A stretch of 16,480 nt of DNA, taken from IMG/VR virus record IMGVR_UViG_2548876963_000009; one strand, 5' to 3'. The stretch comes from a virus. Lineage: Duplodnaviria; Heunggongvirae; Uroviricota; Caudoviricetes. The first letter of the stretch is position 1, and every line of letters begins with the position of its first letter. Shown piece after piece: positions 14,270-15,101 of the stretch. The notes below the pieces were generated by a model. The model searched no databases, was not told the origin of the DNA, and saw only the letters and a program-made list of their open reading frames with translations. A program made the position numbers and the translations under genes.

Positions 14270-14430
14270 ACAGATCCCCGTTTATTATTTATCTCCTCAG
14301 CCAGCCGCTGTGCTTTCAGGGGATTTCGGATAACAGAAAGGCCGGGAAATACCCAGCCTCGCTTTGTAACGGAGTAGACGAAAGTGATCGCGCCTACCCG
14401 GATATTATCGTGAGGATGCTTCATCGCCAT
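14242..14430 (-). CDS. Small ORF (62 aa, orf61-like by position); overlaps its neighbours
   Basis: Open frame overlapping the 3' end of exo and the 5' end of the orf63-like gene in different frames. Confidence 0.4.
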
Positions 14431-15101
14431 TGCTCCCCAAATACAAAACCAATTTCAGCCAGTGCCTCGTCCATTTTTTCGATGAACTCCGGCACTATCT
14501 CGTCAAAACTCGCCATGTACTTTTCATCCCGCTCAATCACGACATAATGCAGGCCTTCACGCTTCATACGCGGGTCATAGTTGGCAAAGTACCCGGCATC
14601 TTTTCGCGTCACCCACATGCTGTACTGCACCTAGGCCATGTAAGCCGACTTTATGGCCTCGAAACCACCGAGCCGGAACTTAATGAAATCTCGGGAGGTA
14701 AACGGGCATTTCAGCTCAAGGCCATTGCCATCACTGCATAAACCATCGGGAGAGCAGGCGGTGCGCATACTTTCGTCGCGATAGATGATCGGGGATTCAA
14801 TAACATTCACGCCGGAAGTGAATTCAAACAGGGTTCTGGCGTCGTTCTCGTACTGTTTTCCCCAGGCCAGCGCCTTAGCATTAACTTCCGGAGCCACACC
14901 GGTGCAAACCTCAGCCAGCAGGGTGTGGAAGTAGGACATTTTCATGTCAGGCCACTTCTCTCCTGAGCGGGGCTTTGCTATCACGTTGTGAACTTCTGAA
15001 GCGGTGATGACGCCGAGCCGTAATTTGTGCCATGCATCATCCCCCTGTTCGACAGCTCTCACGTCGATCCCGGTACGCTGCAGGATAATGTCCGGTGTCA
15101 T
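14421..15101 (-). pseudogene. exo: lambda exo (Red-alpha 5'-3' exonuclease) interrupted by a single in-frame amber codon
   Basis: Residues 1-156 (14634..15101) and 158-226 (14421..14630) are both near-identical to lambda Exo and in the same frame, separated by TAG (complement of 14631..14633) where lambda has Gln (..[16 protein letters not shown]..). Confidence 0.9.

Follow-up and report, generated by a model that had tools for sequence, protein, structure and literature searches.

A recent amber mutation has probably made a clone-restricted pseudogene of the lambda-type exo gene in a defective Escherichia coli prophage remnant

We examined a 16,480-bp stretch of DNA (the window), which is the whole of contig AICE01000060.1 in assembly GCA_000447125.2, and found that its gene for a lambda-type exonuclease (exo, Red-alpha) is split by a single amber codon, TAG, at the position of Gln157. 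The mutation is real and inherited, and it is rare. The reading that we prefer, at a probability of roughly 0.87, is a recent C>T transition at exo codon 157 that has been inherited in one E. coli clone as neutral decay within a defective prophage remnant. We concluded that this is an ordinary, recent, clone-restricted pseudogene and very probably no special suppressor-dependent allele. In the proposed course of events, a spontaneous C>T transition would have turned codon 157 from CAG to TAG in a recent ancestor of the clone, in a gam-bet-exo module left behind in a defective lambdoid remnant, full of IS elements, at the thrW island. Translation would then stop after Ala156, with loss of Gln157 and of the last 69 residues, including Leu184 and Tyr186, which contact Red-beta.

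The exo gene lies on the minus strand, from 15101 to 14421. In a program-made list of open reading frames (ORFs), the expected uninterrupted frame of about 226 codons appears as two same-frame ORFs of 156 aa and 69 aa, the second beginning with a GTG codon directly after the stop. The sole interruption relative to lambda exo is the TAG at 14633 to 14631, which reads on the minus strand as ...GCT TAC ATG GCC TAG GTG CAG TAC AGC ATG...; the T of this TAG is position 14633, an A on the plus strand. The features of the Red region are as follows.

14242 to 14430, minus strand: orf60a-like DUF1317 gene (Pfam DUF1317, E 3e-39); its start overlaps the exo stop, as in lambda
14421 to 14630, minus strand: C-terminal remainder of exo, codons 158-226 and TGA, in frame; no Pfam match alone
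14631 to 14633, minus strand: amber codon TAG for CAG (Gln157), a C>T transition on the coding strand
14631 to 15101, minus strand: N-terminal piece of exo, 156 codons and TAG, colinear with lambda exo (Pfam YqaJ, PF09588, E 9.6e-23, residues 24-155)
15098 to 15883, minus strand: bet (Red-beta, RecT family), 261 aa, intact, colinear with lambda bet; its stop overlaps the exo start (ATGA)
15889 to 16185, minus strand: gam, 98-aa GamS-type, intact (Pfam Gam, 1-98 of 98, E 2.9e-64)
16186 to 16350, no strand assigned: region upstream of gam, in which homology ends at 16267, followed by about 80 unassigned nt and then by the interior of P from 16351; deletion junction
1 to 489, continuing from 16351 to 16480, plus strand: truncated P, N-terminus missing (Pfam Phage_lambda_P, profile positions 46-162 only)

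With Gln157 restored, the 226-aa product matched the lambda exonuclease structures 1AVQ, 3SLP and 6M9K end to end (residues 1-226, E about 2.5e-152), and the matched structures have Gln at position 157. Compared with lambda exonuclease (PDB 1AVQ, 3SM4, 6M9K; PF09588), the gene is colinear over 226 codons without indels, at about 97% protein identity; apart from TAG instead of CAG at codon 157, it differs by K48E, T101I, M140I, N168D and W170G. The gene order gam-bet-exo-orf60a and the overlapping stop and start codons are likewise those of lambda. When the 1,765-nt gam-bet-exo block was compared base by base with lambda (NC_001416) and with three prophage copies from E. coli, there were no indels, and codon 157 of exo had changed from CAG to TAG. 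The backbone is not that of lambda itself, as there are 41 differences over gam-bet-exo; the differences between bet and lambda bet are mostly synonymous. The ORF list and the lambda alignment thus confirmed the original prediction, made from the letters of the window, that exo is split by one amber at Gln157 into pieces that are contiguous in frame. The same prediction held bet and gam to be intact, and this was also borne out, with gam in its GamS-type form only: the kil/GamL region upstream is deleted, so that only the short 98-aa form of Gam can be made.

The 156-aa piece retains Arg28, Ser35 and Ser117 as well as the PD-(D/E)XK catalytic residues Asp119, Glu129 and Lys131, all of them shared with lambda Exo, and it is this piece that is matched by the PF09588 profile. 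The 5'-phosphate pocket of lambda exonuclease is made up of Arg28, Ser35, Ser117 and Gln157, residues that are very strongly conserved across the family (PMC3239189). The equivalent of the pocket residue Gln157 is kept in LHK-Exo, and in the window the pocket is incomplete, codon 157 being TAG. Truncation takes away 70 residues in all (Gln157 and the last 69), and with the loss of Gln157 and the C-terminal residues the exo allele is probably null. By descent the gene is a member of the lambda exonuclease/YqaJ family; its split frame and its broken phosphate pocket set it apart from the functional members. Bet-dependent annealing and recombination of single-stranded DNA works without Exo (PMC6393309), and therefore the module, if expressed, would keep the functions of Bet and Gam and would lack resection of double-stranded DNA ends.

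Next, we asked which other assemblies carry the same allele. In an exact-sequence look-up, at least 15 contigs from independent NCBI, ENA and Logan assemblies proved to encode exactly the same 156-aa truncated product. The carriers include GCA_000447125.2 (the window), a 91.7-kb contig of GCA_974807135.1, seven loci from Logan run assemblies, three of which are recorded in 2-6 samples each, and one ENA metagenome scaffold. In nr the truncated product is listed as CAD5743332.1, 'exonuclease [Escherichia coli]'. On BLAST comparison with the window, none of the carrier loci differed in exo DNA, and outside this gene they had 0-3 SNPs per 4-7 kb. Since independent carriers have this truncated ORF in common and do not differ in their exo DNA, the mutation is a real one that has been inherited in a single young clone.

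There are patchy exceptions to this near-identity. One Logan locus (L012, SRR29790538) has 6 clustered SNPs in bet, at window 15521-15743, and the metagenome scaffold (L006) has 21 clustered SNPs in truncated P, at window 84-951. Both clusters match alleles of other lambdoid copies, which suggests gene conversion or recombination, or else chimeric assembly. At window 13028, in an Ea22-like ORF region, the window has A and five amber-carrier loci (L003, L005, L006, L007 and L008) have G; this SNP is private to the window assembly.

To estimate how rare the allele is, we used 55-nt queries with the variant base centred, so that the 28-nt exact word of megablast was forced across the variant. The TAG 55-mer was carried by none of 5,426 complete E. 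coli genomes, and the CAG control 55-mer was found at 4,945 places in 3,511 of the same genomes. The sole TAG match, in strain SCU-485, was rejected as a false positive: in this genome 2 nt are deleted at the site, and nearly all of the neighbouring genes are frameshifted. A 27-mer bearing the amber codon gave zero matches in GTDB species representatives, IMG/VR and JGI metagenomes, and there were no parallel nonsense alleles at the exo codon 157 site among the 3,511 genomes. Judged from these searches, the TAG allele is a rare, derived variant confined to a single clone.

The original prediction had proposed comparing the same prophage in related strains. Remnants of the same architecture in the thrW island are present in SC455 (NZ_LR778146), NZ_LR778142, NZ_LR778152, Z1323PEC0014 (NZ_CP148268) and 377323_2f. 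They share with the window the truncated P, the inverse autotransporter, the hydrolase, the PACE/LysR cargo and the flanking IS3 copies. Unlike the window, these sister remnants carry CAG157 and an intact exo (annotated by PGAP as 'lambda exonuclease family protein'), and about 1-1.5% of sites in the Red region differ. The premature stop is absent from close relatives, and the lesion is heritable, as is expected of a pseudogene.

Comparison of the window with lambda, 14EC017, Z1323PEC0014 and SC455 gave the changes private to the amber clone: gam R24H, the intergenic base 15885, a synonymous change at exo R137, exo M140I and exo Q157am. Codons 158-226 contain no private change, in a clone with 0-3 SNPs per 4-7 kb anywhere. 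The lack of private changes downstream of the stop fits a very recent event; in a clone so young, it is as compatible with a maintained conditional allele as with neutrality. The rare change W170G (TGG>GGG, window 14594), which the SC455 group shares with the window, was considered as decay after the stop and rejected. A centred 55-mer found it in exactly three of the 5,426 complete genomes (LR778142, LR778146 and LR778152), which are soil and water isolates of E. coli with the same thrW remnant, CAG157 and intact exo; moreover, position 170 is not conserved in the distant homologue LHK-Exo. That bet and gam are still intact can be put down to too little time for decay. Recent pseudogenisation of exo with retention of bet and gam had been one of the alternatives offered by the original prediction, and it is the one favoured by a single near-identical clone, 0/5,426 complete genomes and no private change after the stop.

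In annotation, the two exo pieces are best recorded as a single pseudogene with an internal stop codon, rather than as an 'exonuclease' and a separate hypothetical protein. The locus offers a clean, datable case of the first decay step of a Red module in a cryptic prophage, with bet and gam still intact, and searches for natural Red-type modules for recombineering should take this copy as probably exo-null. Beyond correct annotation its importance is small.

The surroundings of the Red genes were compared with complete genomes, in which the relatives of the window (Z1323PEC0014, SC455 and others) show about 99% identity over 86-92% of its length. The order on the left in these genomes is thrW, integrase and IS3, then hypotheticals, PACE transporter, LysR, dATP/dGTP pyrophosphohydrolase, Ea22-like, TraR/DksA, DUF1382, DUF1317, exo, bet and gam. 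After gam come P missing its N-terminus, a 1,183-aa inverse autotransporter, an alpha/beta hydrolase, ybcN, ninE and ybcO, followed by IS3, an integrase fragment, yagU, ykgJ and ecp. PGAP annotates P as 'missing N-terminus' in the loci L002 and L015. In K-12, the site of the thrW island is taken up by CP4-6. The block bounded by IS3 contains cargo and IS elements and is without immunity, structural or lysis genes, as in a defective prophage. A literature search for published work on a thrW cryptic prophage with exo, bet and gam found nothing specific.

BLAST homology to a more complete lambdoid prophage (L001) ends at window 16267, in the last ~7 nt of kil and 82 nt upstream of gam, and resumes at 16351, at about codon 46 of P. 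Given this gap, and a P match that begins only at profile position 46, the deletion has taken kil, cIII, N, nutL, pL, the immunity region and O, together with about 45 codons from the start of P. A simple consensus scan between gam and the junction detected no leftward sigma-70-like promoter. With pL, N/nutL, the immunity region, O and the beginning of P gone, the Red module of the remnant would already have been poorly expressed and little selected; the missing pL and N and the promoter scan both point to a module that is probably poorly transcribed. In contrast to lambda, the operon of the window is without pL and N and sits in a non-inducible remnant. We concluded that the Red genes are a stranded block in a dead prophage and do not belong to a living one in which the Red operon works, a context that the original prediction did not recognise.

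The recET genes of Rac in E. coli K-12 are a silent recombination module of a cryptic lambdoid prophage. The window resembles this case in that an exonuclease/annealase pair is stranded in a defective prophage, off its normal promoter, presumably silent and free to decay; it differs in having a pair of the lambda Red type, whose exonuclease actually carries a nonsense mutation.

Among the rival explanations we considered whether loss or remodelling of Exo was selected, either because inactivating Exo and keeping Bet and Gam is advantageous (for example, removal of a toxic 5'-3' exonuclease while annealing of single-stranded DNA is kept), or because the 156-aa fragment, or a split Exo reinitiated at the GTG, is functional. 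The Exo-independent recombination by Bet (PMC6393309) would suit such an advantage, and the amber allele persists in carriers that have the left IS3 copy as well as in those that lack it. A working fragment would agree with the retention of Asp119, Glu129, Lys131 and helix E in the N-terminal piece, and a split Exo with the GTG directly after the stop. However, this GTG has no Shine-Dalgarno-like sequence in front of it, and a split Exo would still be without Gln157. Selection for loss is further opposed by the confinement of the allele to one young clone without parallel nonsense alleles at the site in 3,511 genomes, by the intact exo of the sister remnants, and by the failure to find a promoter for the operon. 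We consider selected loss or remodelling unlikely.

Less probable still is a suppressor-dependent allele, by which a host clone with a Gln-inserting amber suppressor would make full-length wild-type Exo. The original prediction listed this alternative and noted that readthrough of an amber at a Gln codon in a supE host would give wild-type protein. Laboratory amber mutants of the lambda red genes are grown on supE or supF hosts, and the window resembles them in having one amber in a Red gene, in principle correctable to wild type by a Gln-inserting suppressor. The stop is at a functionally required Gln, so that only insertion of Gln would restore the native protein, and the 69 codons downstream are still intact. 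Unlike the laboratory ambers, this one is a natural chromosomal allele from wild isolates and a metagenome, with no evidence of a suppressor. The exo gene has 87 single-base routes to a stop, 19 of which are transitions; CAG>TAG accounts for 5 of these 19, and for half of the 10 transitions that lead to TAG. A C>T change at CAG is therefore the default route to an amber, and its 'supE-friendly' position needs no explanation by a suppressor. There is no tRNA gene in the 16.5-kb window, the Red module is without promoter and antiterminator, and the intact downstream codons are accounted for by the youth of the clone. Strong amber suppressors are known essentially from laboratory strains, and in wild isolates they carry a cost. 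The alternative thus found no support, and the argument from an amber at Gln carries little weight.

Even without a suppressor, E. coli reads UAG as a sense codon at low frequency, mostly as Gln, and so trace amounts of full-length Exo with the native Gln157 are conceivable. On this basis the amber might be imagined as a maintained, leaky throttle, in which readthrough as Gln, or an undetected host suppressor, would give a trace of Exo while Bet and Gam remain fully coded, that is, as a domesticated Red module of low toxicity from a dead prophage. We regard this as highly improbable, and nothing suggests selection for trace readthrough; if true, it would be a natural use of stop-codon leakiness to dose a toxic nuclease. 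Programmed UAG readthrough (recoding) giving regulated, low-level Exo has in its favour only the general fact that UAG is slightly leaky and read as Gln, and it is hardly tenable, given that the fold of the 120 nt around and after the stop is no better than that of shuffled sequences (z = -0.04), that no Rfam family was found at the site, and that the stop is unique to one clone and conserved in none of the relatives.

Neutral decay of exo in one clone also has to be weighed against the sequencing or assembly error that the original prediction allowed for, with a genome that is truly CAG and a miscalled plus-strand A at 14633; the window is indeed a draft contig with an artefactual path through an IS3 repeat, but this explanation was rejected as next to impossible, because the truncated ORF and its exo DNA recur on the at least 15 contigs from independent projects and assemblers, the 91.7-kb contig and the metagenome among them, and a substitution is an unusual type of error in repeat-free coding sequence.

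The ends of the contig carry an exact 56-nt direct repeat (window 1-56 is identical to 16425-16480), and relative to the complete genomes and the 91.7-kb carrier contig, the gene order of the window (P'...IS, then IS...gam) is rotated. A plasmid, an excised circle or other circular element, and a tandem duplication were considered for this terminal overlap and rejected in favour of an assembler path through the 5' part shared by two IS3 copies. The overlap is best explained by a path that would enter this shared part from the right-hand copy and leave via the left-hand copy.

An IS110-family element (DEDD_Tnp_IS110/Transposase_20, 358 aa) is inserted in an IS3-family transposase gene of the window, at about 7758-9131, with its transposase ORF at 8039-9115 on the plus strand. 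The insertion is absent at that position in Z1323PEC0014 and SC455, and its right end is at the same place in a second amber-carrier assembly (L003). In the carrier with the 91.7-kb contig, this IS110-family insertion lies in the left IS3 copy and the right IS3 copy is uninterrupted. In a further amber-carrier contig, recorded in 6 samples (L007, about 6930-7105, compared with L002, 5067-6317), the left IS3 copy of 1,251 bp is missing, and a 3-nt overlap at the junction indicates an empty site. This absence could be due to excision or recombination. The amber allele is thus found both with and without the left IS3, although the IS is in place in non-amber relatives.

A full-length Rfam match to the Hfq-binding small RNA isrC (RF01387, 130.7 bits, E 1.3e-31) lies at window 6885-7007 on the plus strand, a little upstream of the IS3 copy with which the remnant ends. 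Two cargo genes lie between truncated P and ybcN-ninE-ybcO: the 1,183-aa inverse autotransporter at 739-4290 on the plus strand (IAT_beta, Invasin_D3 and Big_1 repeats) and the alpha/beta hydrolase of 347 aa at 4327-5370 on the minus strand. Beside the early-left phage genes, a PACE-family multidrug/biocide efflux transporter (Pfam BTP) is encoded at 10283-10741 on the minus strand, together with a divergent LysR regulator at 10845-11729 on the plus strand.
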